From Parcubacteria group bacterium (lineage in GTDB: Bacteria > Patescibacteriota > Minisyncoccia > Phycocordibacterales > Phycocordibacteraceae): a stretch of 58,218 bases of DNA. A program made the position numbers and the translations under genes. Under the pieces are notes generated by a model. The model saw only the letters and a list, made by a program, of their open reading frames with translations. It searched no databases and was not told the DNA's origin. This document shows positions 5,293 through 44,121 of the stretch, in pieces. Within the stretch, counting starts at the first letter, position 1. Each line of letters starts with the position of its first letter. The stretch spans positions 1 to 58,218 of the forward strand of contig JAQBRE010000002.1 of assembly GCA_028286605.1 (NCBI GenBank), read 5' to 3'.

Positions 5293-5700
5293 AAACAATT
5301 TCGATTTATTAATTATTTTGAACGAAGCATGTGCGGTGCGATAAATACTAAAAGTGCATCGCACACACCCGCTTGCTAGTTTGGTAATGGTTTGCTTCCG
5401 AAGAAGCGCACCGATTTTTTGAGCACATTCCTGGACTATCCGACGAGACGCAGTATCGACCCGCATCCCATCGGTTAGCTGGCAAAGTTCAGTAGCATCC
5501 TGTGTCCTTCCATAGTAGGGATCGTGCTTCCGTGCTGAACGCCCGTCATATATGACGGGCCGGCTCGTGGGTTCTTACGCCACGAGCACATGTGCATTTG
5601 CTGAGCACTATTTCCAGAGTCTCAATAGCATAGCTATCGTGAAGCCCTGATTAATGTCAACGTTCTCCCATTCAGTGTTGCGCCCCCTGCGTTCGGTACC
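5293..5700 (-). promoter_or_regulatory. Long structured 5' leader of the PG-binding protein gene (candidate riboswitch or other cis-regulatory RNA)
   Basis: About 400 nt without a credible ORF. Hairpins at 5541-5561 (GCCCGTCATATATGACGGGC) and 5564-5588 (GCTCGTGG..CCACGAGC). The minus strand contains ...ACGCAGGGGGCGCAAC... and ...GAACUUUGCCAGCUAACCGAUGGGAUGCG (5473-5482 = CCAGCUAACC), reminiscent of the ydaO/c-di-AMP motif. Confidence 0.3.
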
Positions 5701-5844: not shown

Positions 5845-6642
5845 CTATGCAAGCGCGTAAGTCGTCCAACGGCGTTCGCCACTGCGGATGATAGTTCCCT
5901 CTTCCGAAAGAGCCAGCAATTCACGCTGAATGGTCTTTTCGCTCACATCTCGGATAACAGTAGAAATATCCTTTATATAGGAAGGGCCCTTACTACGCAG
6001 TATAGAAAGGATGGCTTCGCGGCGATCAGTTGTTTTCTCTGATATCTGTCCTTTATCGTGTCCTTTAGAAACTGACGGTGCCTTGGATGAGGTTTTGCGA
6101 GTAGGTCGTGGCATCGCAGGGGCAGCTGCGATACGGGCTGGGGAAAGCGTTGGTGAGTGGCGCTCAGCAGCAAGCTCCTTCGAGAGTTCTGCCAAGGAGG
6201 GCGCGTCATCCAGAAATAGGCGCGGCTCTTCATAGGCAGCTACCTCCTGCAGAAGCGTTTGCGCTTCTCGGGCAATAAGCTCGGCATTCATGCTGGAAAG
6301 TAATCCGCCCGTGCGTCCGATTGAAAGAACGCTGGAGAGTGCTAGCAACTCGCGGGAAAGCGCATCGCGCGCAGAGGTGGGCGGAAGGATTGCCGCATCC
6401 ACTAAGCCAACGGCAACGTGATCCATACGATCACGCAACGCAGGAGAATTTCGGAATGCCGGAGCTACCAAGTGAATCGCTTTTGCGAGACGCTCAGCTT
6501 TTTTGTAGATATAGACACGACGTATGTCTTTTTCAAATATGTTTGAGAATATACTCTTTTCTAGGACGAAATCAGTAGTAGGCGCCTTTGATTCGTGCGC
6601 CTTGAGTGACTGATTGTCTTTGATGTGTCCGTTATCAGTCAT
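5845..6642 (-). CDS. Hypothetical protein with C-terminal DeoR-like winged-helix domain
   Basis: 265 aa. The C-terminus REAILSILRSKGPSYIKDISTVIRDVSEKTIQRELLALSEEGTIIRSGERRWTTY is HTH-like. Confidence 0.6.
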   Translation of the reverse strand: MTDNGHIKDNQSLKAHESKAPTTDFVLEKSIFSNIFEKDIRRVYIYKKAERLAKAIHLVAPAFRNSPALRDRMDHVAVGLVDAAILPPTSARDALSRELLALSSVLSIGRTGGLLSSMNAELIAREAQTLLQEVAAYEEPRLFLDDAPSLAELSKELAAERHSPTLSPARIAAAPAMPRPTRKTSSKAPSVSKGHDKGQISEKTTDRREAILSILRSKGPSYIKDISTVIRDVSEKTIQRELLALSEEGTIIRSGERRWTTYALA

Positions 6643-21951: not shown

Positions 21952-22521
21952 CTAAAGACCTGAAGCGGCGATGCCGCGATTTATGCGGGAGATGATGTCT
22001 TTACGATCAGCTTCAACAGCGGCACGTGTCGCTTCGCTGAAGTCTTCATCGCTTTCGCCCGGTATGACACCTGCATCTAAGCCGAGCGTTCGGAGTATGC
22101 GCAGCACAGCGAGACACTCTGCTGCATCCTGTTCTTCTTCGGAAAGATTCGCGAGCGAGCCGATGAAATTCGTATAGATAATGAATAGAGCAGGATCGTT
22201 CACTTCGCCGCGTACGAAACGCAGCATGAGCTCCGCGACGCGTCCGGCACGGACGCGTGCCTTGAACGGAAGCGCACGAGACCAGTCGCGCGCAAGGATA
22301 CTACCCGCTAACCGCCAGCCCTCCTTCCCTTTTAGCAGAGTGACATCCGATTCTGCGAGCGTTTGCAGGCCAGCACTCATCTTCGCGCCTGGTTTGCGCA
22401 GCCCCTGGCTGCGCGCGCGTATCACACCGAAGTCGCCGGTGAGCAAGGTAACGAGCGAACTCGCTTCCGAAAGCGGAAATCGTGCGAGCGCTATCGCTGC
22501 TGTGGTGTATTTATGCCGCAT
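21952..22521 (-). CDS. recO: DNA repair protein RecO
   Basis: MRHKYTTAAIALARFPLSEASSLVTLLTGDFGVIRARSQGLRKPGAKM.... The ATG at 22521 overlaps the ileS stop (ATGCGGCATAA). The ORF-track extension to 22647 lies inside ileS. Confidence 0.85.
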   Translation of the reverse strand: MRHKYTTAAIALARFPLSEASSLVTLLTGDFGVIRARSQGLRKPGAKMSAGLQTLAESDVTLLKGKEGWRLAGSILARDWSRALPFKARVRAGRVAELMLRFVRGEVNDPALFIIYTNFIGSLANLSEEEQDAAECLAVLRILRTLGLDAGVIPGESDEDFSEATRAAVEADRKDIISRINRGIAASGL

Positions 22522-25500
22522 CGAGAGAAACAGCGAATAGTATCTTCCCTGTCGAAAGGTCTGCTGCATAGGGAACGTCGGATGGTGCGTCGAAGGTAAG
22601 AGATGTTGTTCCGCTGATAGATGTACCTTCGAGTATCGTGCGCGCATTTTCAGAAACCTGTACGGAAACAGAATCCTTCGGAGAAAGATTCATGGTCTTG
22701 CGGGCGTCGGCGAGTGCGCGCATGAATGCACGCACGTCGCCTTCGCGAATGAGTTCAAGAGTGAGTTCAAGATCAAGCGTTACCTCTTCCTGTTCTGCAA
22801 GTACTTCCTTTACGTTCACTTCTTCGGCAAGTATCTCTACGAGCTCGCTGCTAAGGCCGCCTGGAATAGAAAGTTTGGCGAGTGGCTGACGCACGACGAT
22901 GTTCGCTTTCTGGCGGAGCTGAAGCGCTTGCGAAGCAAGCGCTCGCACGCGTGCCATTTCTTCAATCAACTCCTCATCTACTTCCGTGGCAAGCGGCCAC
23001 GAAGTGAGGTGCACGCTCTCTGGTTCGTCTTCCACGCGTACGGCGCGATATACATATTCCGCAGTGAACGGAGCGAATGGCGCCATGAGTTTTGCCGTGT
23101 CAGAAAGAATGGATCGAAGCGTACTGAGCGCGAGCTGCGCATCTTCCCCGCCGCGCATGCGGTCGCGCGAGCGACGAACATACCACTGTGAAAGATCACC
23201 GATGAATTCACGCAACTCGCGTGTTGCCGTAAACAGATCGTATGCATCGAGTGCAGCCGTCATACGTGCAGCAGTCTGTGCGAAGCGCGCGCGTATCCAG
23301 CGATCCACGACGTGCGTACTCTCTTTTGCTTCCTTCGCCATATCCGCATCCGCATACGACTCATAGAATGCGAGCGCGTTCACGAATGGATTGAATACCT
23401 TATTCGCCACTTCCGTGACGGTCTTCTCATCGAAACTCTTGGAGTCCCCAGGCTGATTCACGCTGTACATCCAGAAGCGAAGCGTGTCTGCGCCCCAGCG
23501 TTCTATCGCCTCCCACGGATTTACGATATTGCCCTTACTCTTACTCATCTTCGCTCCCTTTTCGTCCAGCAAGTGGCCGAGACAAATAACGTTCTTATAC
23601 GGCGTACCGCGGCCCATAAGCACGCCCACAGCGAGCAGCGTGTAGAACCAGCCACGAGTCTGATCTATCGCTTCTGAAATAAAATCTGCAGGATACCCGT
23701 TCCCTTCTATCCATTCCTTGTTCTCGAACGGATAGTGATCTTCTGCGAATGGCATCGCGCCAGAATCGAACCACACATCCATCACTTCCTTCACGCGCTT
23801 CAGTTCAGTACCAGTATCAGAAAGAAGCACGACGTCGTCGATATACGGGCGATGCAGATCGAGCTCGTATGAATCGTTGTGCGGAAGCGGAATAAAGGTA
23901 AGTTCTTTCGGCGTCGCGTAGGTCGGCAACTTGTTGCCGACCATACCGCGTGAACCCGATGCGTCCGCCACCTCAGCGACAGCCATTGCCGCCTCGAAGC
24001 CGACACCGTGCGTAACGATGAGAATATTTTCATTCGTATATTTCTGCTCGAGCTCATACATGAATGAACCGAAACGGTTCTTCACATCCTGATAGCTTTC
24101 GCCGCCGGGGATGCGATCTGTGTAGCCGCAGGTATCGCGATACTTCTTGAACTCCTCGAGAGCCTTTCCATTGAAATCTCCGAAATCGAACTCACGAAGA
24201 CGCTCATCGGTATGAATCGATGATGCAGAGAAATCGAGCACTTCCGCCACGGCAGCAGCGGTCTCGCACGTGCGTGTAAGCGGCGACGCAAAGATCTTCG
24301 TTATATTCGCATCCTTCAATTGTGCGCCGCCGGCAGCTGCCTGCGCGCGGCCGTTCTCAGTAAGCGAAGACGGAAACGTCGCATCATCTTTCGTCGCGAT
24401 CGATTTCAGATTGTGCTCCGACTCCCCGTGGCGCATTACGAAATACTTGTTGCCGCTCTTCTTCACGCGCTGTTTCAGTTCTTCAACCGAGCCGATCATG
24501 ACGCGCTCAGTTCCGTCTGCATTCTCCCAAATAGGGAGCGGCGTTCCCCAATAGCGTTCACGTGATATCGCCCAGTCCTTGTCGCCGGCAAGCCACTCCC
24601 CCATGCGGCCATCGCGAATATGCGCCGGCTCCCAATTCACCTTCTGATTCTCTGCAACGAGCGTCGGGCGCAGATCGCTCATGCGGATGTACCACGAATC
24701 ACGTGCGTAATAGATGAGCGGTGTCTTGCAGCGCCAGCAGAACGGATAACTGTGCAGATGATTCTCTTGTGAGAAGAACAGATTACGCTTCTTGAGGTCG
24801 TCGATGATATCCACGGCGAGCGTGGGCTTTCCGTTCTCGTCAGCTTCCTTAACAAAGCGGCCTTCAAGGAATCCTGTTCCTGGAACGAACGTACCATCCG
24901 GCGCGACTAGATGTACCTTCGGCAAGCCGACTTTCGTGCCGAGTTCGAAATCTTCCTGCCCGTACATTACGGCGGTGTGCACGATGCCCGTACCATCTTC
25001 GGTCGTAACGAAGTCTGCAGCGTACACCTTGAACGCATTCTCGAATTTCGGCTTCTCTGTTTCCGAAGCGAGCGCTTCTGCGAATGGATAGAGCGGCTTA
25101 TATGATTTACCAATTAATTCATTCGTACTCATAGAGCCGATGTGATTCCATCCTTCAGGCAAGACTTCTTTTCGCGTATTCGCAAGAACTACTTTCTCGC
25201 CGTCTTTTTCATACACGGCATACTCGATGTCCTTCCCTACGGCGAGGCCTACGTTTCCAGGCAGCGTCCACGGCGTCGTCGTCCACGCAAGAAGATACGT
25301 ACCAGGCTCATCAACGAGTTCGAACTTCACCGTAACGGAAAGATCTTTCACGTCTGCATAGCCCTGCGCGAGTTCGTGCGTTGAAAGCGCAGTGCCGCAG
25401 CGCGCGCACCATGGAAGCACTTTGTAGTCCTTATATATACGACCATCATCGCCGATCTTCTTGAAGATCGACCAGACCGATTCCATGTACGGCGCGTTGA

Positions 25501-25957
25501 AGGTGAAGTACGCCTTCGATTGATCCACCCAGTAGCCGACACGGTCGGTGAAGCGCGCCCACTCTTCTATGTATTCAAAAACGCTCTCACGGCACTTCTT
25601 ATTGAAAGCAGCGATCCCATATACTTCGATATCCGGCTTTCCCTTGAAACCGAGCTTCTTCTCAACCTCGAGCTCAACCGGAAGGCCATGCGTGTCCCAA
25701 CCGGCACGACGCGGCACATGATAGCCGTGCATCGTCTTGTATCGCGGAATGGCATCCTTGAAGGAACGTGATTCCATGTGGTGCACGCCGGGGCGGCCAT
25801 TCGCTGTTGGCGGTCCTTCATAAAAGATGAAATCACCTTCGGTGGCCGGCTTTTCAAGCGACTTCTCGAAGATATGGTTCTCCTTCCAGAACGCCAGGAT
25901 CTCTTCCTCGCGCTTCACTGCGTCGGTCTTTTCTGGGGTCTCGCCGGTTTCAGCCAT
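22511..25957 (-). CDS. ileS: Isoleucyl-tRNA synthetase carrying an inserted histidine-phosphatase domain
   Basis: PPTANGRPGVHH (HIGH-type), CP1 editing region, KMSKS (GAKMSKSKGN), long C-terminal anticodon-binding region. 1148 aa because of a ~190-aa insertion at aa ~503-695. Confidence 0.93.
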   Translation of the reverse strand: MAETGETPEKTDAVKREEEILAFWKENHIFEKSLEKPATEGDFIFYEGPPTANGRPGVHHMESRSFKDAIPRYKTMHGYHVPRRAGWDTHGLPVELEVEKKLGFKGKPDIEVYGIAAFNKKCRESVFEYIEEWARFTDRVGYWVDQSKAYFTFNAPYMESVWSIFKKIGDDGRIYKDYKVLPWCARCGTALSTHELAQGYADVKDLSVTVKFELVDEPGTYLLAWTTTPWTLPGNVGLAVGKDIEYAVYEKDGEKVVLANTRKEVLPEGWNHIGSMSTNELIGKSYKPLYPFAEALASETEKPKFENAFKVYAADFVTTEDGTGIVHTAVMYGQEDFELGTKVGLPKVHLVAPDGTFVPGTGFLEGRFVKEADENGKPTLAVDIIDDLKKRNLFFSQENHLHSYPFCWRCKTPLIYYARDSWYIRMSDLRPTLVAENQKVNWEPAHIRDGRMGEWLAGDKDWAISRERYWGTPLPIWENADGTERVMIGSVEELKQRVKKSGNKYFVMRHGESEHNLKSIATKDDATFPSSLTENGRAQAAAGGAQLKDANITKIFASPLTRTCETAAAVAEVLDFSASSIHTDERLREFDFGDFNGKALEEFKKYRDTCGYTDRIPGGESYQDVKNRFGSFMYELEQKYTNENILIVTHGVGFEAAMAVAEVADASGSRGMVGNKLPTYATPKELTFIPLPHNDSYELDLHRPYIDDVVLLSDTGTELKRVKEVMDVWFDSGAMPFAEDHYPFENKEWIEGNGYPADFISEAIDQTRGWFYTLLAVGVLMGRGTPYKNVICLGHLLDEKGAKMSKSKGNIVNPWEAIERWGADTLRFWMYSVNQPGDSKSFDEKTVTEVANKVFNPFVNALAFYESYADADMAKEAKESTHVVDRWIRARFAQTAARMTAALDAYDLFTATRELREFIGDLSQWYVRRSRDRMRGGEDAQLALSTLRSILSDTAKLMAPFAPFTAEYVYRAVRVEDEPESVHLTSWPLATEVDEELIEEMARVRALASQALQLRQKANIVVRQPLAKLSIPGGLSSELVEILAEEVNVKEVLAEQEEVTLDLELTLELIREGDVRAFMRALADARKTMNLSPKDSVSVQVSENARTILEGTSISGTTSLTFDAPSDVPYAADLSTGKILFAVSLDAA
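23870..24451 (-). other. In-frame histidine phosphatase (PGAM-like) domain inserted within ileS
   Basis: YFVMRHGESEHN, LTENGRAQA, IFASPLTRTCETA, LREFDFGDFNG, GGESYQDV, ILIVTHGVGF. All hallmark catalytic positions appear present. Confidence 0.8.
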
Positions 25958-28213: not shown

Positions 28214-30730
28214 TTAACACTCGTATGAACCTGCACAACCTGTTCCATCATTCTTACGCGGCGTACCTTCAATATCCCCCGGGAAACCTGCATCTCCTGT
28301 GGGAACGCGGTTCGTAAGACCTGTGGTCACATTCGGCTTATACCAACCAAGACCTGTGCCGTTACCAGCCCAGCCTCCCGTCCACGCGGTATTCCCGTTA
28401 TTCGCCATGAAGGTGAACGTGCTCTGGCTATACCCTGCACTGCTCGTGTTTCCAGGGAGGCCAAGATAATCGGCCTGTGTTTCAGCGAATCCAGGAGCGG
28501 CGCCTGAATCGATACCGTTCGGCCCTGTAACATCCCCAAGATCACCAACGCCGAAGCGCATACGCCAGTTTCCTACGCGTGCACCGCACAGCTGACCCGT
28601 ATTGAATGCCGAGATGCTTGCCGTCGCTGTCGCTCCGGTTCCATCACCCGTAATTGTTACGGTAGGCGCACTTGCGTATCCTTCACCTCCGGTATTCCCG
28701 CAGACCGTCGTATCGAGCGTTATGGTCGAGACCGCGCCACCTGAAAGATTCGCGTGAGCAAGCGCCGTCACGTCATTAGCGCTACCGCTTGGATTTCCGA
28801 CCGTTACCGTAGCAGTGGTGTACCCGCTACCGCCAGCCGTTACGGTTATGGTGGTTACGAAACGATCCAATGGGTTCGAGAAATAATCACCCTTGCTATA
28901 GCGATCGAAATCAATATTGAACAAATCATTCCCCGTTTTTAGTACACTCGTAGTTCCCAGGCTGTTGTAATACATATTCGTGCGATTTCCTGTCGTCGTA
29001 TTGTATTGACGAAGTAAATTCGAGAACGTTGTTATGTCGTCATCTGCACCGAAACTGAACGCAGGCGAGACGCTGCTTGAACCGACTTCTTCAAACACAT
29101 TCTGTACGAATGCGACATTGTTTCTTGAAACGAGACCGCCGGTCATGGCAACGATTTGCGCATTGTTGACGTTCATCATCTTGTTGAACGCTATCAGCAA
29201 GCTTGGCTCAGTTACACTACTGATACGCATTGCTGACATAACGTTGCCGAGAACCGTATTAGGAGCTACGATCGCAGAGCTTCCAGGAATTCCCAATACT
29301 GTGGAACCGAATTCCGTCGCGGTCTCTCCTGTTGCGCCGAAACTACTGAGAATTCTTGAGTCGCCGAGAGATTCGTCGATATACGAATTATAGTATTCGC
29401 GCCAACCGATCTGGTTAGTCCACGCGCTCACGGCTGCTTGTGTCTCGTCCAGCCACGAGCCTTGAAATATATTGTGCGCGAGCACGGTTCCCGAACCGGT
29501 GTCCGGCCCTGCGATAACCGTTTTATTTGATGCGTTATCAGTGAATTTCAGATTCTTGAAGAACGTCGTATTTCCAGAAATATTATTCGTTGAAGCATCA
29601 ATATCCGTATCGGCAGCGCTGTGTCCTGGTTCCGCTGAAATAACCATATAGGTAGAACAGTTCGTCGGAGCATCGAGCGCGAGACTTCCGGCGAATCCCG
29701 TCGTCGTACCTGCTTTCAAATATATGATTCCGCCGCAGGCGTTATTGTGGCCATCATTCGCGTTGTAGTAGGTCTTAATAGCATCTGCAGCATTCTTTAT
29801 GTTGGCATAATATGCCGTCGTACCCGGGTCGGTCGCCGTCGTTTGTACTGCAGGGCTGGCGCCTGCACCAGCCGGACTCACCCACGCATATATCGGTACA
29901 TACTTGTCGTTCTTATCGTTGAGAATCTGCAGGCTCTTTAGTGTTGGCGTAATGACGCTCGCAGCCACCGGAATACCGTCAGCGCCCTGAGACGTGTCGA
30001 GCGTGATGGTGCCGAAATTACTATACGCGACGGCCTTCACGGTGGTGGTTCCTTGCGCAAGCGTATCCATTTCAGCACTGGAGAATGTTGCTGCATATAC
30101 GTATACAGGGTCACCAAGCGTTACCTTCACCGTGCCGTTAGCCGTTGCGTTCGTGTTCAGCGTCAATTGCGTTGGGGAATCCACAGAACTGATCCTTGGT
30201 TCACCAATACCTACGCCAGAAGCAGTACCCGTACTAACCGTCGTATACATTCCAGCGATCATACCCGTCGTGCTACCGCAGGAAGTGAGCACCGCAGAAC
30301 CGCTCGTTGCCGTACAGGTCGTTGAGGTTAGATACGTAGATTGCGTCATCGTAGAAGTCGTATGGCTTACTGATACGCTGCCGTCAGTAGCGGTGAATGT
30401 CACTGAAGCCACTTGCCCGTTATTACGGGGGAACTTACTTACGACTGAAAATTCAACAGTGAAGGGCGTTGTGGACGCGCGACGCAAATTAGTTGGCGTT
30501 ACCCATGCGCCAATAGGACGATACTCACCTACTGTAGAGTTGTTCGTTGCCGCGAGTGTGGTAACCGCTGCGGTAGAGGTGCTGTGCGTATACCATCCAG
30601 AGAGACCCGTCAGCGTCACCGTATCGGTAGGAAGAATATCGTCAGAGAGTAGTACGGTCGTCGTTAGATTCCCGCCACTCGCCGTTTCGGTCGTCGTAGC
30701 TCCATTAGGGTATGGGAATCGGAATGGCAC
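28214..30730 (-). CDS. C-terminal part of a giant surface protein (beta-helix-like middle; separated from 30664-33603 by a frameshift)
   Basis: 838-aa ORF starting at an internal GTG. Its frame stays open upstream to at least 30898 and reads protein-like sequence (ARIDPELTFNVSTHGYDSSGNATT...). Confidence 0.7.
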   Translation of the reverse strand: MPFRFPYPNGATTTETASGGNLTTTVLLSDDILPTDTVTLTGLSGWYTHSTSTAAVTTLAATNNSTVGEYRPIGAWVTPTNLRRASTTPFTVEFSVVSKFPRNNGQVASVTFTATDGSVSVSHTTSTMTQSTYLTSTTCTATSGSAVLTSCGSTTGMIAGMYTTVSTGTASGVGIGEPRISSVDSPTQLTLNTNATANGTVKVTLGDPVYVYAATFSSAEMDTLAQGTTTVKAVAYSNFGTITLDTSQGADGIPVAASVITPTLKSLQILNDKNDKYVPIYAWVSPAGAGASPAVQTTATDPGTTAYYANIKNAADAIKTYYNANDGHNNACGGIIYLKAGTTTGFAGSLALDAPTNCSTYMVISAEPGHSAADTDIDASTNNISGNTTFFKNLKFTDNASNKTVIAGPDTGSGTVLAHNIFQGSWLDETQAAVSAWTNQIGWREYYNSYIDESLGDSRILSSFGATGETATEFGSTVLGIPGSSAIVAPNTVLGNVMSAMRISSVTEPSLLIAFNKMMNVNNAQIVAMTGGLVSRNNVAFVQNVFEEVGSSSVSPAFSFGADDDITTFSNLLRQYNTTTGNRTNMYYNSLGTTSVLKTGNDLFNIDFDRYSKGDYFSNPLDRFVTTITVTAGGSGYTTATVTVGNPSGSANDVTALAHANLSGGAVSTITLDTTVCGNTGGEGYASAPTVTITGDGTGATATASISAFNTGQLCGARVGNWRMRFGVGDLGDVTGPNGIDSGAAPGFAETQADYLGLPGNTSSAGYSQSTFTFMANNGNTAWTGGWAGNGTGLGWYKPNVTTGLTNRVPTGDAGFPGDIEGTPRKNDGTGCAGSYEC

Positions 30731-33603
30731 GGTTCCAAGTATCGAACGACTAAGCGTCGTGGCGTTTCCAGAGGAATCATATCCATGCGTAGAAACATTG
30801 AATGTGAGTTCGGGGTCGATTCGGGCGTAAGCGCGTACGTGCCGCGTGACGTAAGACCCTTCACGGTGATGTCGGCAAGATAGCCGCTCGATTCTATCGA
30901 TACGCCGGTAACCGTTCCGTCTGCCACTACTCCTGAAGAGGTGGTGACTGTCTGATCACTTGAGGTCGCGAGATTGCCAGATGCATCTGCTGCCTGAATT
31001 TGGAAATGATACGTAGTAGCTGCCGAGAGACCCGTCAATGTAATGGAGTGCGAGGTCGCAAGAGTAGAAGAACTCGAAGCGGTTCCATACGCGATGCTCG
31101 TGCCGTATGCAATCGTTGAAGAGGCATTCTCGTTCGTTGTCCACGTTATGGTTGCGCCAGAAGAACTGGAAGAAGTAGCTATTGAAGAGATAATCGGCGG
31201 AGTCGTGTCTGGTGCTGATGTCGTAATGAATGTGAGATCGCTCGAGGTCGCCACATTATTCGATACGTCTGCTGAGGCGACTTGGTAGTGATACGTCGTA
31301 GCGGCAGTGAGCCCCGTAAGGGTTACGGTGTGAGATGTAACAAGAGCTGCAGAGGTAGAGGCAGTTCCGTATACAGACGTTGTTCCGTAATTCACCGTGG
31401 ACGACGCGTTCTCATTCGTGGTCCACGTGATGGTTGCTCCCGTTGAAGTAGTCGAAGATGCAATCGAAGAAAGCACTGGAGCAGTATTGTCGACCGTTAC
31501 CGTTATTGGTGAAGATGTCGCAAGATTGCCCGCAGCATCGCGCGCAACCGCAAGAAGCGTGTGTGAGCCCGTCGATGTGGCCGTTGTGTTCCATGTAATG
31601 GCGTACGGCGCAGAAGTGTCTTCAGCACTAAGAAGCGCGCCATCAAGTTTGAATTGAACGCCCACGACAGCCACATCGTCTGAGGCAGAAGCAGTAACTG
31701 CGACCGAGGTACCCGAGACGGTACTGCCGCCGGCGGGTGCAGTGAGAGCAACGGTCGGTGGCGTTGTGTCTGGTGCAGCAGACGTAGTCACGGTTTGGTC
31801 GCTTGAGGTTGCTAGATTGCCCGACGCGTCCGCAGATTGAACTTGGTAGTGATACGTAGTGGCTGCTATGAGGCCGGTGAGCGTAATGGAGTGCGAAGTC
31901 GCAAGAGCAGAAGAGCTGGAAGCAGTGCCGTATGCGCTGCTCGCGCCGTATGCAACCGTGGAGGATGCATTCTCGTTTGTCGTCCACGTTATCGTTGCAG
32001 TGCTTGCTGTTGGGGAGCTCGCAATTGCTGAAATAGTTGGAGGCGTTACGTCAGGTGCTGCCGTTGTAGTGAATGTGAGATCCGAAGACGTAGCGACATT
32101 GTTCGATGCATCCGCTGACGCAACCTGGAAGTGATAAAGAGTTGACGCAGCAAGTCCGGAAAGAGTGATTGAGTGCGACGTTATCAATGTTGCCGTAGTA
32201 GATGCAGTGCCATAGGTGCTGCTCGTTCCGTAATTCACCGTGGACGACGCGTTCTCATTCGTGGTCCATGTGATGGTTGCTCCCGAGAACGTCGGTGAAG
32301 AGACAATCGAGCTAAGCACAGGCGGTGTTACATCAAGAGTGGCCGTGGTGGTCACGGTGCGGTCGGTCGACGTGGCAAGGTTGCCCGAACTATCCGCAGA
32401 TTGAATCTGGTAGTGATACACCGTAGACGCCGTAAGGCCGGTGAGCGTAATGGTGTGCGAGGTGACAAAGGGTGACGACGAAGACGCAGTGCCATAGCCG
32501 GTAGTAGTGCCGTATGCAACCGTGGAGGATGCAGCCTCATTCGTGGTCCATGTAATAGTGGCTGCCGTTGCGCTTGAAGTGCTCGCTATAGAAGAAATGA
32601 CCGGAGGCGTTATGTCGGGAGCCGCGCTGGTTGTAAATGTCTGGTCTGCTGAGTACGCAGTATTTCCTGAGGAATCAGCAGTACGGATACGAAAATGATA
32701 CGTAGTAGCTACGGTAAGTCCGGTGATCGTAACGGAATGCGAGGTGACAAGCGAAGTATCTGGTGTTGTCGTTGCTCCATATGAAGAGGTTGTTCCGTAT
32801 GCGACATCTGAATCTGCAGATTCGTCCGTAGTCCACTGTATAGTCGCAGAGGTAGTACCCGGAGTTCCTGATGATATGGCTGAGACGACAGGTGGAGTCG
32901 TATCAGATGGAGGCGCGCTCTGACTACTTCCACCCCCTCCCCCGCTACCCTCCGAAGCTCCAGATGAAATACCTCCATTGGCATTCGTAAATTCAGGGTG
33001 TGTCGACGCCGTTCCGGATGAAGAGCCGCTTGATACCGTAACGAGCACGGCACGGGTCAATGGGCCGACAGTGCCGACGCTTGGGAGGCCGTGGGCGGCC
33101 TGAAAGGCCGCTACTGCATTCTTCGTAACCGCACCAAAATACCCCGTGATTGTCGGATACGTATAAAAACCGGCGTTTTTAAGGAACTGCTGAAGAGCAC
33201 TGACATCTGTACCTGTTGAACCGGTATCGAGTATACGCGTAAGTACAAGAGTGGGAGCAGATTCCGGTGCAGAGACCGCTATACCTGGTGCAGATGCTGC
33301 TATTCCAGTATTCAAAAGGTTAAGAGTAATCGGACCAACCAGACCGATTGATGAAATGTCATGGGCGGCCTGAAAGGCCGCCACCGCATTCTTCGTAACC
33401 TGTCCAAAATATCCGGTTATGTTTGGAAACGTGTAAAAACCAGCATTTTTGAGGAATTGCTGGAGTGCAGAAACGTCCGTACCAGTCGAACCAACTGAAA
33501 GCGGGCGGCCAAACGTTGCGGCGTGGGAGTGTGCCGGGACACAAAGCAACAGTGCAAATAATGTTGCGCCGATAAAGCGCCTAGAACAGTTCCCTCTTTC
33601 CAT
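30664..33603 (-). CDS. N-terminal part of giant surface protein: signal peptide, 2 PG-binding domains, 6 Fn3-like repeats + 1 Ig-like domain
   Basis: MERGNCSRRFIGATLFALLLCVPAHSHA signal. Two copies of VGSTGTDVSALQQFLKNAGFYT...VTKNAVAAFQAAH. Repeats of ...ATITWTTNENASSTV.YGT...YG.....L.TSH.ITLTGL.A.T.YH.Q. The last ~35 aa look out of frame. Confidence 0.8.
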   Translation of the reverse strand: MERGNCSRRFIGATLFALLLCVPAHSHAATFGRPLSVGSTGTDVSALQQFLKNAGFYTFPNITGYFGQVTKNAVAAFQAAHDISSIGLVGPITLNLLNTGIAASAPGIAVSAPESAPTLVLTRILDTGSTGTDVSALQQFLKNAGFYTYPTITGYFGAVTKNAVAAFQAAHGLPSVGTVGPLTRAVLVTVSSGSSSGTASTHPEFTNANGGISSGASEGSGGGGGSSQSAPPSDTTPPVVSAISSGTPGTTSATIQWTTDESADSDVAYGTTSSYGATTTPDTSLVTSHSVTITGLTVATTYHFRIRTADSSGNTAYSADQTFTTSAAPDITPPVISSIASTSSATAATITWTTNEAASSTVAYGTTTGYGTASSSSPFVTSHTITLTGLTASTVYHYQIQSADSSGNLATSTDRTVTTTATLDVTPPVLSSIVSSPTFSGATITWTTNENASSTVNYGTSSTYGTASTTATLITSHSITLSGLAASTLYHFQVASADASNNVATSSDLTFTTTAAPDVTPPTISAIASSPTASTATITWTTNENASSTVAYGASSAYGTASSSSALATSHSITLTGLIAATTYHYQVQSADASGNLATSSDQTVTTSAAPDTTPPTVALTAPAGGSTVSGTSVAVTASASDDVAVVGVQFKLDGALLSAEDTSAPYAITWNTTATSTGSHTLLAVARDAAGNLATSSPITVTVDNTAPVLSSIASSTTSTGATITWTTNENASSTVNYGTTSVYGTASTSAALVTSHTVTLTGLTAATTYHYQVASADVSNNVATSSDLTFITTSAPDTTPPIISSIATSSSSSGATITWTTNENASSTIAYGTSIAYGTASSSSTLATSHSITLTGLSAATTYHFQIQAADASGNLATSSDQTVTTSSGVVADGTVTGVSIESSGYLADITVKGLTSRGTYALTPESTPNSHSMFLRMDMIPLETPRRLVVRYLEPCHSDSHTLMELRRPKRRVAGI
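30950..32900 (-). repeat. Tandem coding repeats (~280-290 nt Fn3-like units, 6 copies, one Ig-like unit interposed)
   Basis: Near-identical DNA blocks, for example 31382-31441 versus 32225-32284 (one mismatch in ~60 nt by eye). Confidence 0.8.
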
Positions 33604-40199: not shown

Positions 40200-40690
40200 G
40201 CACGGTCAGTATGGTGGTTGCGCTTGGGAAAGATAACGTTATCGGAAAAGATAACGGCCTGCTCTGGCATCTTTCGGATGATCTTAAGCATTTCAAAGCC
40301 GTAACGATCGGACATCCGGTTATCATGGGCCGCAATACGTGGGAGTCGATTCCCGAGAAGTTCAGGCCGTTACCAGGAAGAACGAACATCGTGGTCTCGC
40401 GCAGCGAGACCTATGACGCGCTCGGCGCCGTGCATGCGCGTTCGCTCGATGACGCACTCGAGCAGGCAAAGCTCGCCGAAGGTGCTGAAGAGATTTTCAT
40501 AATAGGCGGCGGCCAGCTCTACGCTGCTGCCCTTCCCCAGACGGACCGTATCTATCTCACGCTCGTTCATGACGATGCGAAAGGCACCGTCTTCTTTCCA
40601 GACTATTCAGACTTCACTGAAGTTATCAGCGAGGAGGCGCACGAAGAGAACGGTATCAAATACATCTGGCGCACGATTACGCGTCCTTAG
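40196..40690 (+). CDS. folA: Dihydrofolate reductase
   Basis: VSMVVALGKDNVIGKDNGLLWHLSDDLKHFKAVTIGHPVIMGRNTWESIP...IIGGGQLY. Confidence 0.92.
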   Translation: MSTVSMVVALGKDNVIGKDNGLLWHLSDDLKHFKAVTIGHPVIMGRNTWESIPEKFRPLPGRTNIVVSRSETYDALGAVHARSLDDALEQAKLAEGAEEIFIIGGGQLYAAALPQTDRIYLTLVHDDAKGTVFFPDYSDFTEVISEEAHEENGIKYIWRTITRP

Positions 40691-41670
40691 TTTGAAATAA
40701 GTTTTTCTCTCAACTTCGTAGTATTCCCGTGACTCAATAAGCCCAAGTAAGAATTGAGAACTTCAGGTCTTTTATCTTCTTGAAGAGTACGGATCATTCG
40801 TTTCCTAGTGGTTGGACGCAACACACGATGCTCTGGGAAATGAACCCAGCCAAGAAAATCGATTCCTGAAGCTATTGTGCTTATAGAGACTTTTCGTGGA
40901 TGCATTTCTAGCTTAAGCCGATCTTTGAGAAAAGCGCAGATTAGAGGTAGAAATTCGACGAGAACATCTCGATTGTAGGACATAAATGCGAAATCATCAG
41001 CGTAACGGATATAATATTTCGCTTTTAATTTGTGCTTTACGAATTGATCAAATTCATTCATGTATACGTTCACGAGAAGCTGCGAGGTTAGATTGCCTAG
41101 CGGTAACCCTGTTTTATCTTTGCTATTTGAAAAACTATCAACGATCTTTGAAATGAGGCCAAGTATCTTAGTGTCTGGTATATATTCTCTGACAATTGCA
41201 GTAAGGATCTCCTGATCAATAGAAGCAAAGAATTTGCGGATATCGCACTTCAAAACCCATACGGTTCTCGTGTGGTTCTTTGAAGCCTTACGCGCAAACC
41301 GTTCAAATTGCTCAAGCGCTTTATGTGTCCCCTTTTCCTTCCTGCACGAATAAGAATCAGTAATGAAGGTCCTGTCAAAAAATGGATAGAGCTTTCTGTA
41401 TAACGCATGGTGCACAAGCCGGTCACGCACGTTCGCTTTGTGTATGTTGCGGGGCTTTGGATCTGAGATATTGAAGGCGTAATAACCTCCATGTCTGTAG
41501 CTATTGTTCTCTAGATCGGTATGCAAGTCAGTAAGATGATCCGATAAACGGTACTGGAATTCCTGTGTATCTGTTTTGTTACGTTTCCCTTTCAAAAATT
41601 CGCGCCATGCGCCGAGCAGGTTTTCAGGCGAGATGATATCGTCATATGTATGATTGAACTGAATTCTCAT
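40687..41670 (-). CDS. DGR-type reverse transcriptase
   Basis: 327 aa. GLPLGNLTSQLLVNVYMNEFDQF (the LGxxxSQ signature typical of DGR RTs) and YIRYADDF. Its stop overlaps the folA stop by 4 nt (convergent). Confidence 0.9.
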   Translation of the reverse strand: MRIQFNHTYDDIISPENLLGAWREFLKGKRNKTDTQEFQYRLSDHLTDLHTDLENNSYRHGGYYAFNISDPKPRNIHKANVRDRLVHHALYRKLYPFFDRTFITDSYSCRKEKGTHKALEQFERFARKASKNHTRTVWVLKCDIRKFFASIDQEILTAIVREYIPDTKILGLISKIVDSFSNSKDKTGLPLGNLTSQLLVNVYMNEFDQFVKHKLKAKYYIRYADDFAFMSYNRDVLVEFLPLICAFLKDRLKLEMHPRKVSISTIASGIDFLGWVHFPEHRVLRPTTRKRMIRTLQEDKRPEVLNSYLGLLSHGNTTKLREKLISN

Positions 41671-42045
41671 ACTCTAAAAGCTACCCCCCCCCCGAGGCTC
41701 ATTCCATTAGTTTTAAAGTTGAAGGACACGTACGGCATATGGCAACAGTATGTAGTTCATTTTCCCAAAGCCAACCGCTTTACGCTAGGAGCGAAAATTG
41801 ACGACATCTTCCTCAGCTCGATCGAATACGGTTTCTTGGCCAGCTATAGTGCAGGTACAGAAAAACTCCATCTCATTAACCGCTGTATAGCCCGAATCGA
41901 TCTGCTTAAGCTTCTGCTCCAACTTAGTTGGGAAATCCATGCACTGGATGATAACAAGTATGGCCACCTCTCTAGAAACTTAGCCGAGATCGGAAAGATG
42001 CTTGGCGGCTGGCGCAGACAAACGGTACAAAAAACTCCCGAGTAA
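41650..42045 (+). CDS. avd: Four-helix-bundle protein (Avd / 23S-rRNA-IVS protein family), DGR accessory variability determinant
   Basis: 131 aa. ...FPKANRFTLGAKIDDIFLSSIEYGFLAS...LLKLLLQLSWEIHALDDNKYGHLSRNLAEIGKMLGGW. On the opposite strand to RT and TR. Its start overlaps the RT start by 21 nt. Confidence 0.8.
   Translation: MIELNSHTLKATPPPRLIPLVLKLKDTYGIWQQYVVHFPKANRFTLGAKIDDIFLSSIEYGFLASYSAGTEKLHLINRCIARIDLLKLLLQLSWEIHALDDNKYGHLSRNLAEIGKMLGGWRRQTVQKTPE
41684..41693. repeat. Homopolymer C10 (G10 on the minus strand) in avd codons 12-15 and in the RT 5' UTR
   Basis: gctaCCCCCCCCCCgagg encodes T-P-P-P. On the minus strand the G-run ends 13 nt before the RT ATG. Confidence 0.9.
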
Positions 42046-42054
42046 TCTCGGGAG
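42029..42054 (-). terminator. Hairpin + U6 about 15 nt downstream of the TR (minus strand); the avd stop codon lies in its loop
   Basis: CTCCCGAG-TAAT-CTCGGGAG (42035-42054). A6 at 42029-42034 is U6 on the minus strand. Confidence 0.7.
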
Positions 42055-42069
42055 AAATCTTGAACGTGG

Positions 42070-42200
42070 CGCACCGCGAGGAAACGGTAGAGCCCGTCCC
42101 ACTCATCCTCGAACCAATTGAGGTTGAGGTTCCGCTTCGACCTGTTCTTCCAGAGTTCAGGCACGTTGCGGTTGCCGTTCACCTGCGCGACGGAGCCTTG
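42070..42200 (-). repeat. DGR template repeat (TR)
   Basis: Gap-free alignment to 42538-42668. All mismatches fall at TR adenines (minus-strand sense). Encodes QGSVAQVNGNRNVPELWKNRSKRNLNLNWFEDEWDGLYRFLAVR (6 AAC + 1 AAT codons). Confidence 0.9.
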
Positions 42201-42443
42201 TGTGAGGAGCCATCTGTTCCACCATCCATCGAGTACTCTCCGGATTGAATCTCATGCGCGGCCTTGTATGTCGCCAGTTCTCCACACCAACGGTCTCTGA
42301 TTTTTTGAGACGAACAACGTATCACCCTTCAGAAAATCGTGACCTTCTGAATCCTCAATACGAAGCTTGCGGACAAATTACCCAAAGCCGTAACCTTAGA
42401 TTTTTCACTTGTCCTGAATAGTATACCGAATTATAAAAATGAA

Positions 42444-42475
42444 GCGGCGCGTTGCTTAGGAAAGCAACGCGCCGC
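42444..42475 (-). promoter_or_regulatory. 14-bp GC-rich hairpin with 4-nt loop, ~45 nt downstream of the VR / target stop codon
   Basis: GCGGCGCGTTGCTT-AGGA-AAGCAACGCGCCGC, followed on the minus strand by TTCATTTTTAT. May be a terminator and/or a DGR target-recognition hairpin. Confidence 0.7.
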
Positions 42476-42518
42476 AAGGGTCCAAGTTTCCAAGGGCCCA
42501 AGTTCAGGGGAATGAGGC

Positions 42519-43169
42519 TTAAGCGGCCGAGACCTGACGCACCGCGAGGAAACGGCAGAGCCCGCCCCACTCACCCTCGAACCAATAGAGGCGGAGGTCC
42601 CGCTCCGACCCGTACTCCCAGAGCCCAGGCACGTTGCGGTAGCCGCCCACCCGCGCGACGGAGCCGAGGCCGATGACCGGATACTTGCGCTGCTCTTCCG
42701 GGAACGCGATCCCGAAAGAGAGCAGGTGCTCGGTCTTGGCCGGCGCCCACGGATTCGTGGAATCGGCCGCTTCGATCGCCTTGATCGCGTCCTTGGACTC
42801 GATCATGCGGTCGAAGTGGAAGAGGCAGACCTCGAACTCGACGATGCCGTCACCCTTGATGGGGAAACGTTTCGCCGTGAGGTCGTCGTTCTTCCAGTCG
42901 TAGTTGCCGGCGGCGATCATCTGCTCCAGCGTCTGGCCGTAGTCGACCGTGAGGCGGAAGGATTCCGGCATCACGGCGGTGAGCTTCAGCATCGCGCGAA
43001 ACGTTTTCAGTTCCGGCAACGTGCCGGCCTTGGCGGCCTGCGCGAGCGCGGCGAGATAGCCGTCGTGCAGCTTGGCGTAGTCGGCGGCGGTGAGGCCCTG
43101 CTGTTCCAGAATGGTCAGCGAGTGCTTGGCCTGTCCGGCCGTGGCGACACTGGCAGAGTGGTTGCTCAT
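42519..43169 (-). CDS. DGR target (variable) protein, 216 aa, no signal peptide
   Basis: SD AGGAG 6 nt before the ATG at 43169. C-terminal 44 aa are the VR (LGSVARVGGYRNVPGLWEYGSERDLRLYWFEGEWGGLCRFLAVR), then QVSAA and stop. The gene is visibly GC-rich. Confidence 0.85.
   Translation of the reverse strand: MSNHSASVATAGQAKHSLTILEQQGLTAADYAKLHDGYLAALAQAAKAGTLPELKTFRAMLKLTAVMPESFRLTVDYGQTLEQMIAAGNYDWKNDDLTAKRFPIKGDGIVEFEVCLFHFDRMIESKDAIKAIEAADSTNPWAPAKTEHLLSFGIAFPEEQRKYPVIGLGSVARVGGYRNVPGLWEYGSERDLRLYWFEGEWGGLCRFLAVRQVSAA
42538..42668 (-). repeat. DGR variable repeat (VR)
   Basis: Homologous to the TR. The 3' A-free block CGTTTCCTCGCGGTGCG is identical in both. Confidence 0.9.
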
Positions 43170-43227
43170 AGGAAGCTCCTATAATGCGAGCTACTCCTTG
43201 CGGGTAGCTACTAGAGGACGACGGGAT

Positions 43228-43281
43228 GTCGCCATAGCCTAGAAACGCCTACGAAAGTAAGCGGCTTTAGGCTATGGCGAC
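43228..43281 (-). other. 14-bp hairpin in the target-gene 5' leader
   Basis: GTCGCCATAGCCTA...(26 nt)...TAGGCTATGGCGAC. A second small hairpin lies at 43190-43208. Confidence 0.6.
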
Positions 43282-43322
43282 TTTACGTAAGCCTTATTTT
43301 TAAAGGGCAAAATGCTGATATT

Positions 43323-43351
43323 AATATACACTATATACTTAATATTGTCAA
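43323..43351 (-). promoter_or_regulatory. Candidate sigma70-type promoter of the DGR target gene (TTGACA-17-TATATT)
   Basis: Minus strand: TTGACA at 43351-43346, a 17-nt spacer, TATATT at 43328-43323. Confidence 0.55.
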
Positions 43352-43353
43352 TA

Positions 43354-44121
43354 TCACTTCTCTCGCTTGCCGCTCCCGCCTTTCTTCCATTTAAAACTCT
43401 TGTGGAAGAAAAATGGAGTGAACACATCGTCATCCGGAGCGACGATAAGCTGCGCGTTGTTACGGGGCGAACGATTCTTCATGGAAATATTCTTTGCGCC
43501 GCGGATGATTGCGACGGGCATTCGTTCGCTTCCCTCTCCCATTTCTAATACCGCAGCAGCAGCGAGCGAATCGATAAGGTTCGCGAGCTCAACGCGAATG
43601 AGGCGGCCGAAGATATCCGGCGTGCCGCGATAGTCACGAAGCGGATCGATACCGTCCCAGGAAAGCGCGAAGCCGATAGCACCGCGGCGGAGCGGCATGC
43701 TCATAGAGTCCGTGATGATGACGGCGACTTCCTTGAGATCGTATTCTTTCATCAGCCATGCGCGCAGATCCTTTGCGCTCTTGAACGGATCCTTCGGATA
43801 CAGCACGTAGTGATCGTTCGCATTGCTTTCGTCGATGCCGGCGGAGCCGGCCATGGCGCCTTTCGTTATGGTGAAACGGCGGCGATAGCGCGAGGTCTTG
43901 GGTGCTTTCAGATACCAGTCCGATTCTTCCTGAATGAGAATTTCTTTGTCTGGAATTTCGCTTATAGGAACCGTGCGACCTTCTTCTATGGAAACGACTT
44001 TCGAGGAGATACAGACGATGTCTCCATCCTTTGGTGAGAAGCGGATGGTTTCTTTCAATACGTCACGCAACGAATCCTTGGGGGGAACGAGTGCACGAAC
44101 TTGGATGCCGGTGACTTGCAT
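43354..44121 (-). CDS. CofE-like (F420-0:gamma-glutamyl ligase family) protein
   Basis: 255 aa. ...GDIVCISSKVVSIEEGR..., ...GSAGIDESNA..., ...VIITDSMSMPLRRGAIGFALSWDGI.... Family call is from memory. Confidence 0.65.
   Translation of the reverse strand: MQVTGIQVRALVPPKDSLRDVLKETIRFSPKDGDIVCISSKVVSIEEGRTVPISEIPDKEILIQEESDWYLKAPKTSRYRRRFTITKGAMAGSAGIDESNANDHYVLYPKDPFKSAKDLRAWLMKEYDLKEVAVIITDSMSMPLRRGAIGFALSWDGIDPLRDYRGTPDIFGRLIRVELANLIDSLAAAAVLEMGEGSERMPVAIIRGAKNISMKNRSPRNNAQLIVAPDDDVFTPFFFHKSFKWKKGGSGKREK

Follow-up and report, generated by a model that had tools for sequence, protein, structure and literature searches.

The DNA analysed here, a stretch of 58,218 nucleotides (nt) from the Parcubacteria group bacterium assembly GCA_028286605.1 (contig JAQBRE010000002.1, positions 1 to 58,218; hereafter called the window), contains a compact cassette with all the components of a diversity-generating retroelement (DGR). 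Along the chromosome, the cassette reads target gene with the variable repeat (VR), template repeat (TR), the accessory gene avd in reversed orientation, and the reverse transcriptase (RT) gene. It is flanked by folA, encoding dihydrofolate reductase (DHFR), on one side and by a cofE-like gene on the other, with thyA, genes for dCTP deaminase and tRNA synthetases, glyA (encoding serine hydroxymethyltransferase, SHMT), rplK, nusG and ftsK as further neighbours. The SHMT sequence shares 86-91% identity with proteins that carry the names Parcubacteria group or Paceibacterota. Because of these housekeeping neighbours and the best named matches of SHMT, the sequence context places the cassette in the chromosome of a bacterium of the Parcubacteria/Paceibacterota, i.e. 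of the candidate phyla radiation (CPR), rather than in a prophage.

The TR (42070..42200, minus strand) is 131 nt long and contains 29 adenines, and the VR (42538..42668, minus strand) accounts for 44 codons at the end of the target gene (codons 168-211 of an open reading frame (ORF) of 216 amino acids). A machine-made ungapped alignment of the two (offset 468 nt) shows 19 mismatches over the 131 nt, all 19 at TR adenines, with none of the 102 other TR positions differing (hypergeometric P=5.7e-16), and the same pair was recovered independently by a separate repeat search. An earlier reading made from the sequence only had described a gapless match of about 130 nt, with 17 of 27 adenines changed and 0 of 100 other positions differing in a 127-nt core plus two more adenine changes at the 5' edge; the alignment reproduces these counts, without any non-adenine mismatch within the repeat, and the TR and VR peptides quoted there were also correct. 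The substitutions from TR to VR comprise 13 A to G, four A to T and two A to C, fall in codon positions 1 or 2 in 17 of the 19 cases, and alter 15 residues between the TR and VR peptides. The TR contains six AAC codons and one AAT codon, and homing could rewrite up to 18 target codons, putting some 10^16 protein variants within reach. Two AAG codons of the TR (42149-42147 and 42137-42135) can be turned into TAG through adenine mutagenesis, so some homing events would truncate the target within the VR. Both repeats end in the same adenine-free, GC-rich block of 17 nt, CGTTTCCTCGCGGTGCG (42070-42086 in the TR and 42538-42554 in the VR), and non-adenine divergence between TR and VR sets in directly 3' of it (42069 C/T, 42066 C/G). 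The block had been likened earlier, from the sequence, to an initiation of mutagenic homing (IMH) site; judged by sequence, the block and the adjoining divergence fit an IMH at the VR end and a non-identical IMH* at the TR end. A second VR, with any base allowed at the TR adenines, was not found in the 58-kb window.

The RT gene (40687..41670, minus strand) encodes 327 amino acids with a Pfam RVT_1 domain (E=7.8e-24) and carries the motifs that had been noted, LGNLTSQ (within GLPLGNLTSQ) and YIRYADDF, with the YADD catalytic motif intact. Its best match among solved structures is the RT of Bordetella phage BPP-1, bRT (8ub7; E=1.7e-39, 139 bits, residues 8-296), and the alignment pairs LGNLTSQ with IGSLTSQ of bRT, i.e. 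with motif 4 of DGR RTs, [LIV]GxxxSQ. Group II intron RTs (E 1e-15) and retron RTs (1e-6 or worse) all score at most 61 bits against it, and on this sequence evidence the protein belongs with the DGR RTs.

The avd gene (41650..42045, plus strand) is best described as a long ORF of 131 amino acids that starts with an ATG at 41650 and runs through a tract of ten cytosines (C10), with a TTG at 41719 as an alternative start. The product matches the Pfam family bAvd (PF22296) with 47.3 bits, above the 40-bit cut-off, which upholds the earlier assignment of an Avd-family ORF next to the RT gene; to this must be added that avd lies on the strand opposite to RT, TR and target, which had not been stated. 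Between the RT gene and the long avd ORF there is a head-to-head overlap of 21 nt (41650-41670), and the avd ATG is the reverse complement of the codon (CAT) for the conserved His7 of the RT. This geometry of avd and RT, with the ATG 34-37 nt from a repeat, recurs in many relatives. In the window the ATG at 41650 is in frame with the Avd core (the 'ON' state), the Avd domain beginning just past C10.

A search with the RT returned at least 590 relatives in a species-representative genome collection, the best 80 of which (60-68% identity) are nearly all labelled CPR/Patescibacteria or unclassified. A simple BLAST screen found an adenine-biased TR/VR pair in 60 of the 80 loci, where some 400 nt separate the end of the TR from the RT gene downstream and the VR lies 390-780 nt (mostly 425-530) upstream of the TR. 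In the window, as in all 75 related loci where avd was detected, this gene sits reversed between TR and RT. The target, in contrast, belongs to the same family in only 16 of the 80 loci, so that one RT/avd/TR module serves different targets. The layout is that of the published architecture B3, 'TR-(avd)-RT' with avd reversed, to which 90% of CPR DGRs belong (Wu et al. 2018, PMC5758913), and CPR DGRs have been placed in clade 2, with targets lacking recognisable domains (Roux et al. 2021, PMC8144416). The element shares with these its gene order and orientation, the reversed avd, the host group, the RT clade, the adenine-specific divergence and a target without a recognisable domain or membrane signal, and nothing within the cassette itself sets it apart. 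Since its layout is that of the B3 architecture typical of CPR DGRs, the element is, as far as sequence comparison goes, an ordinary member of a described class and does not represent a new one, in line with the remark of the sequence-only reading that DGRs are frequent in CPR genomes. It is, in itself, one more well-preserved example of the class that dominates CPR reverse transcriptases.

A view of the same site in a different state is offered by a syntenic close relative (L151, SHMT 91% identical), in which the genes run SecE-NusG-L11-CofE-target-DHFR. Here about 12 bp (6429-6440) take the place of window positions 42422-40699, a segment bounded by the presumed -10 box of the TR RNA and by the stop codon of the RT gene, and the same is seen in a second locus (L152). 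L151 keeps the orthologous target at the same chromosomal site, without the 1.7-kb module of TR RNA, avd and RT. In the region of L151 equivalent to the VR, differences from the TR of the window occupy 21 of the 29 adenine sites and only 25 of the 102 others (Fisher P=4e-6); from the VR of the window this region differs at 17 of the 29 adenine sites. This adenine-biased divergence implies that the L151 lineage diversified its target too, and to judge from these sequences it has probably lost or relocated the RT-avd-TR module. The complete identity of the non-adenine TR/VR sites in the window (102/102), set against differences at 24.5% of such sites in the same region of L151, argues for homing in the recent past.

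With all elements found where the sequence-only reading had put its complete and intact DGR, we place the probability that the locus is an intact, chromosomal and recently active DGR of the CPR-specific lineage (B3) in a member of the Parcubacteria/Paceibacterota at about 92%. Current activity, assumed in the sequence-only reading ('looks active'), can only be deduced, from the identity of all 102 non-adenine sites, the intact RT and the in-frame Avd. Several observations weigh against this assessment. The data on current activity consist of one assembly and an identical contig in Logan, and a metagenome pattern scan for the flanks of the C10 tract yielded no variants; the best NCBIfam match of the RT is a group II intron RT/maturase model (group_II_RT_mat, 143 bits against a cut-off of 300), no DGR-RT model being among its NCBIfam matches; the NCBIfam model DivGenRetAVD covers residues 19-122 of Avd with E=1.3e-17 and 64 bits, under its 80-bit cut-off; and the C-type-lectin assignment of the target relies on weak fold matches of a structural model (E=0.02, TM-score about 0.5). 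The scan without variants, and the look-up of the exact RT that returned only the identical contig, leave room for a cassette that looks intact and is inactive or switched off, its VR being a frozen record of past homing. Such a scenario further agrees with the loss or absence of the RT-avd-TR module beside the same target in L151 and L152, showing that loss occurs in the lineage, and with the repeat at the RT/avd junction (see below), which in 38 of the 68 loci leaves the upstream start of avd out of frame. It has to contend with non-adenine sites that are all identical between TR and VR when the orthologous region of L151 differs at 24.5% of them, with an intact RT ORF including YADD, and with an avd that is in frame through C10; we consider it quite improbable. 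Far less probable still, to the point of being negligible, is an ordinary partial duplication that diverged by normal mutation next to an unrelated RT of a group II intron or retron, as the top NCBIfam match of the RT might be taken to imply. Nineteen random mismatches would all have to land on the 29 adenines, the RT (only 327 amino acids long) scores 139 bits with the DGR RT 8ub7 and at most 61 bits with the competing types, no intron, retron or other RNA family was detected (with Rfam, across the window at gathering thresholds and over 41900-43450 at E<=1), and the cassette recurs in 60 relatives, each with an adenine-biased pair of its own. The adenine-only pattern, the RT scores and the negative Rfam results effectively refute this explanation.

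Two readings also compete for the GC-rich hairpin that, followed by TTCATTTTTA, occupies 42434..42475 (minus strand). It consists of a perfect 14-bp stem (10 G-C pairs) with the 4-nt loop UCCU at 42444-42475, starts 43 nt past the stop codon of the target, and sits 56 nt beyond the end of the TR/VR homology. The sequence-only reading had described stem and loop correctly and likened the structure to the hairpin/cruciform of the BPP-1 DGR; the description holds, and the likeness goes only part of the way. The cruciforms of phage DGRs have a GC-rich stem of 7-10 bp and a 4-nt loop GRNA and lie 4-34 bp from the VR (Guo et al. 2011), and of these features the present hairpin shares only the size of the loop and the richness in GC. 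A terminator scan calls it intrinsic-terminator-like, the stem being followed by the T-rich TTCATTTTTA, and the simplest reading of the sequence is indeed that it is the intrinsic terminator of the target gene. That it serves as a target-recognition hairpin/cruciform as in BPP-1, and not merely as a terminator, is a rather unlikely alternative, which can point to a perfect GC-rich stem with a 4-nt loop downstream of the VR and to a hairpin within 130 nt after the VR in 56 of 61 cassettes (GC-rich and typically at 45-85 nt); Guo et al. (2011) themselves raise the possibility of terminator-like targets. The loop, stem length and distance all depart from the phage pattern, however, the T-rich tail is as expected of intrinsic terminators (32 of the 56 hairpins have one), the position and loop of the hairpin vary among relatives, and Wu et al. 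(2018, PMC5758913) report VR-proximal repeats of this sort for just 34% of DGRs.

We now turn to the C10 tract (41684..41693; G10 on the RT strand), a simple sequence repeat at the divergent junction of RT and avd, located 14 nt upstream of the RT ATG and within the long avd ORF. No other G/C homopolymer of 8 nt or more occurs in the window. The corresponding junction of about 155 nt carries a simple repeat in 68 of 76 loci, in 62 of them a poly-G/C tract of 8-14 nt and in the rest (CT)7-11, (GT)8-10, (CTGG)10 or (ATTG)7. Simple repeats reach a density of 5.7 per kb at the junction, about 40 times that of the remaining 693 kb of these loci (0.14 per kb). A sequencing artefact as the source of the poly-G tracts can be ruled out, for the tract is internal to 62 independent assemblies and occupies one homologous position, where other loci have other repeat units. 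A search for pairs of loci whose flanks around the repeat are at least 80% identical found none; in hand-picked pairs of relatives with conserved flanks, repeat length differs, as with (CT)11 against (CT)7 and G13 against G9. The upstream avd start is in frame with the Avd reading frame in 30 loci and out of frame in 38, and of the six repeats that are not homopolymers, five are in frame and read through. A repeat upstream of the RT is absent from all 34 distant DGR RT loci and present in one of four viral loci with 56-59% RT identity. The single Logan contig found by the exact-RT look-up (100% identical; run SRR13312974) likewise has G10.

Simple sequence repeats are the basis of contingency loci, where slipped-strand mispairing brings about phase variation, as with the poly-G/C tracts of Campylobacter and Neisseria. 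Like these, the junction carries, between divergent genes and at an ORF's 5' end, a perfect homopolymer (8-14 nt) or a repeat of di- or tetranucleotide units; the tract length differs between close relatives, which show a mixture of in-frame and out-of-frame states. Unlike these, the gene to be controlled would be part of a hypermutation machine and not a surface antigen, the length variation has so far been seen between relatives and not within a population, and the avd start is putative. That the position is conserved while the repeat unit changes speaks for selection on mutability, as is characteristic of contingency loci, and the sequence comparison suggests that the junction repeat puts the diversifier under phase-variable control. 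Such a switch could affect the translation of avd, through its leader, or transcription, through a control region shared by RT and avd; the downstream TTG start at 41719 is compatible with either. A limited search of the literature found no link between DGRs and repeat-mediated phase variation. If the proposal is correct, the junction repeat is a built-in on/off switch for targeted hypermutation, and by switching Avd off it could lock in a favourable VR variant, which bears on the question of how hosts retain a useful variant once the DGR has found one.

The other feature shared by the related loci is RNA structure around the TR. The roughly 230 nt between the target terminator and the TR are conserved across loci with unrelated targets, and the segment immediately 5' of the TR (42201..42414, minus strand; about 210 nt) forms a structured domain supported by covariation. 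RNAalifold, run on 58 loci, yields six helices with 48 pairs, of which 43 show compensatory changes; in the window these are H1 (42401-42381), H2/H3 (42364-42316), H4 (42287-42276 with 42211-42200), H5 (42272-42259) and H6 (42245-42224). In an independent count, 94.3% of cells were paired, compared with 38-50% when the partners were slid by one to three columns, and the covariation score was 0.80 against 0.14-0.20 in the slid controls, with none of 500 shuffles reaching the observed values. A covariance model of the 3' half of the domain (R1) has a single match in the window (42188-42306, 83 bits, E=6e-17), and it matches 28 held-out CPR loci, 12 of which are loci where the TR/VR screen had failed, as well as five loci from a viral collection with RTs 56-59% identical; loci with RTs at most 48% identical gave no match. 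At its 3' end, H4 stops shortly before the TR/VR homology begins, the median distance being 2 nt, with 57 of the 58 loci within 12 nt. On this comparative sequence evidence, a conserved structure 5' of the TR exists and is not hypothetical. Rfam returned no family at E<=1 over 41900-43450, and the Weinberg RT-1 to RT-19 motifs were not among its matches. The domain is preceded by a -10-like box, TATACT (42420..42425, minus strand), which is the presumed promoter of the TR RNA; TATACT, TATAAT or TACAAT occurs at the same alignment column in related loci, and the box coincides with the left edge of the 1.7-kb module missing in L151.

On the other side of the TR, 15 nt after its end, a terminator scan picked out the stem-loop CTCCCGAG-ATTA-CTCGGGAG followed by T6 (42028..42054, minus strand), with the avd stop codon in or beside its loop on the other strand. 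A hairpin follows the TR within 110 nt in 60 of 61 cassettes, with a T-rich tail in 52 of these, and six of its seven pairs show compensatory changes. For 207 of 278 DGRs, those of CPR included, Handa et al. (bioRxiv 10.1101/2023.10.23.563531) predicted Avd-binding stem-loops immediately 3' of the TR, in a survey limited to 40 nt on its upstream and 100 nt on its downstream side. By analogy, the terminator-shaped stem-loop described here is a likely candidate for binding Avd.

A comparison with the BPP-1 DGR (mtd-avd-TR-brt) brings out both common ground and departures. The RT and Avd are homologous, both elements show adenine-specific mutagenesis, the target, of the C-type-lectin type (putatively so here), carries the VR at its 3' end, and a GC-rich IMH-like block ends the repeat. 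The stem-loop directly following the TR occupies the position of the Avd-binding stem-loop of BPP-1, and the helix adjoining the TR at its 5' end occupies that of the 'cPRT stop' duplex. In contrast to the phage element, the present one is chromosomal, its avd is inverted and placed between TR and RT, so that no free 140-nt spacer is left 3' of the TR, its RNA appears to end, past the TR, in a stem-loop with the shape of a terminator, the post-VR hairpin does not conform to the consensus of a GRNA loop at 4-34 bp, and a hypermutable repeat separates RT and avd. A further difference is the large conserved structured RNA 5' of the TR, whose order looks circularly permuted. In BPP-1, the RNA 3' of the TR consists, in order, of the Avd-binding stem-loop, the primer strand, a 'stop' strand pairing with the segment that immediately precedes the TR, a small adenosine-containing stem-loop, a single-stranded 'thumb ring' and the RT-binding stem-loop (Handa et al., bioRxiv 10.1101/2023.10.23.563531). 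Here, the order 5' of the TR is an A-rich strand, the 5' strand of H4, H5, the conserved AAUACGAUACA, H6, GGUGG...GAUGG, the 3' strand of H4, and the TR. Such an order would result from a circular permutation of the phage DGR RNA, with H4 as the hypothetical counterpart of the stop duplex. A 5-bp pairing of GAAGA in the A-rich strand with UCUUC immediately 3' of the TR, preserved in 79-90% of the loci with four to five pair types, could be the primer:template duplex. Against this model of the RNA it must be said that H4 and H5 are imperfect in the window itself, that the GAAGA:UCUUC pairing is weak there and has an alternative register, and that the promoters of CPR bacteria are poorly known, which makes the ends of the TR RNA putative. 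In addition, RNAduplex applied to long segments was uninformative as to long-range pairing of the BPP-1 kind, and the best contiguous helix between the regions upstream and downstream of the TR was overall no better than in shuffled sequences. A recurrent GG(A/C)(U/G)GG:CC(A/G)UCC pairing with the antisense of GGW codons of avd is confounded by coding constraint.

The element may thus be envisaged to work as follows. A non-coding RNA of about 400 nt would be transcribed from a promoter just past the target terminator, and would comprise the structured 5' domain of about 210 nt, the 131-nt TR and the 3' stem-loop with its U-tract. RT and Avd would copy the TR into cDNA, misincorporating opposite adenines, and the cDNA would replace the VR, i.e. 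the last 44 codons of a C-type-lectin-like protein. The scaffold for RT/Avd binding, priming and stop, functions that reside 3' of the TR in the Bordetella phage, would be supplied by the 5' domain, with H4 closing at the TR boundary, GAAGA:UCUUC as the candidate primer:template pairing, and the terminator-like stem-loop as an Avd-binding 3' end. Slippage in C10 would stochastically switch Avd, and perhaps the RT, on and off. Such a permuted RNA, if real, would explain why the cassette tolerates an inverted avd right after the TR. The combined proposal, that the CPR lineage departs from the Bordetella paradigm both by a permuted template RNA and by a phase-variable diversifier, is a tentative one, to which we give somewhat less than even odds. 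The features on which it draws are clade-wide with strong comparative support at the sequence level, while their function and novelty are still to be established. In an incomplete check of the literature, the 5' RNA domain, the post-TR stem-loop with its U-tract and the junction repeat were not found in Rfam or in searchable publications, and neither PMC5758913 nor PMC8144416 was found to contain the 5' domain, the junction repeat or the GC-rich targets described below. The covarying 5' domain provides a testable model of cDNA priming and stop in the commonest CPR architecture, where a 3' spacer is missing.

The target gene (42519..43169, minus strand) encodes a protein with an N-terminal helical region and a putative C-type-lectin-like domain at the C-terminus bearing the VR, its C-terminus reading ...LGSVARVGGYRNVPGLWEYGSERDLRLYWFEGEWGGLCRFLAVRQVSAA. 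Sequence searches of Pfam, NCBIfam and PDB gave no match for it. Its 269 homologues all come from Patescibacteria or unnamed sources (the named ones being Kaiserbacteria, Paceibacterota or Patescibacteria) and combine a conserved scaffold with a hypervariable C-terminus. An AlphaFold2 (AF2) model built from 53 homologues has a pLDDT of 88.8, and its top fold matches in PDB are C-type lectin domains, at a weak level (E=0.02-0.4, best probability 0.97, TM-score about 0.5); known DGR variable proteins were not within the top 50 of these matches, and a fold search against a viral structure library found nothing significant. The target is apparently a small, non-secreted, lectin-like protein. Its gene has a GC content of 65% and a GC content at third codon positions (GC3) of 0.88, with A at only 4% of these positions, compared with a GC3 of 0.62-0.69 in the neighbouring host genes and 0.42 in the RT gene. 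In all 59 cassettes, the window included, the target is more GC-rich than the flanks (by 11.6 points on average), an excess that holds outside the VR too in 55 of 58 cassettes, and the GC content of the RT gene is below that of the flanks in 53 of 59. Avoidance of adenine and GC-biased repair around a frequently recombined site are two possibilities that could underlie the GC-rich targets; together with the module missing beside a retained target, such targets provide handles on DGR evolution. Upstream of the gene, its 5' leader contains a long, very stable imperfect hairpin (43221..43288, minus strand; an inverted repeat with 32-nt arms, fold z-score -5.4), which is also kept in L151, and a sigma-70-like promoter match is found at 43323..43351 (minus strand; TTGACA-17-TATATT, agreeing with the consensus at 11 of 12 positions and identified as a consensus match only).

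As to the rest of the 58-kb window, no tRNA genes were found anywhere in it, and no Rfam family was matched at gathering thresholds. The gene at 22511-25957 (minus strand) encodes a class I aminoacyl-tRNA synthetase of 1148 amino acids, in which a histidine-phosphatase domain (His_Phos_1) is inserted at residues 506-662 between the catalytic halves. Two large and probably cell-surface proteins with peptidoglycan-binding domains are encoded at 30664-33603 and 3391-5466 (both on the minus strand), one of them also having six purple-acid-phosphatase-N-like repeats, an fn3 domain and a Big_7 domain.

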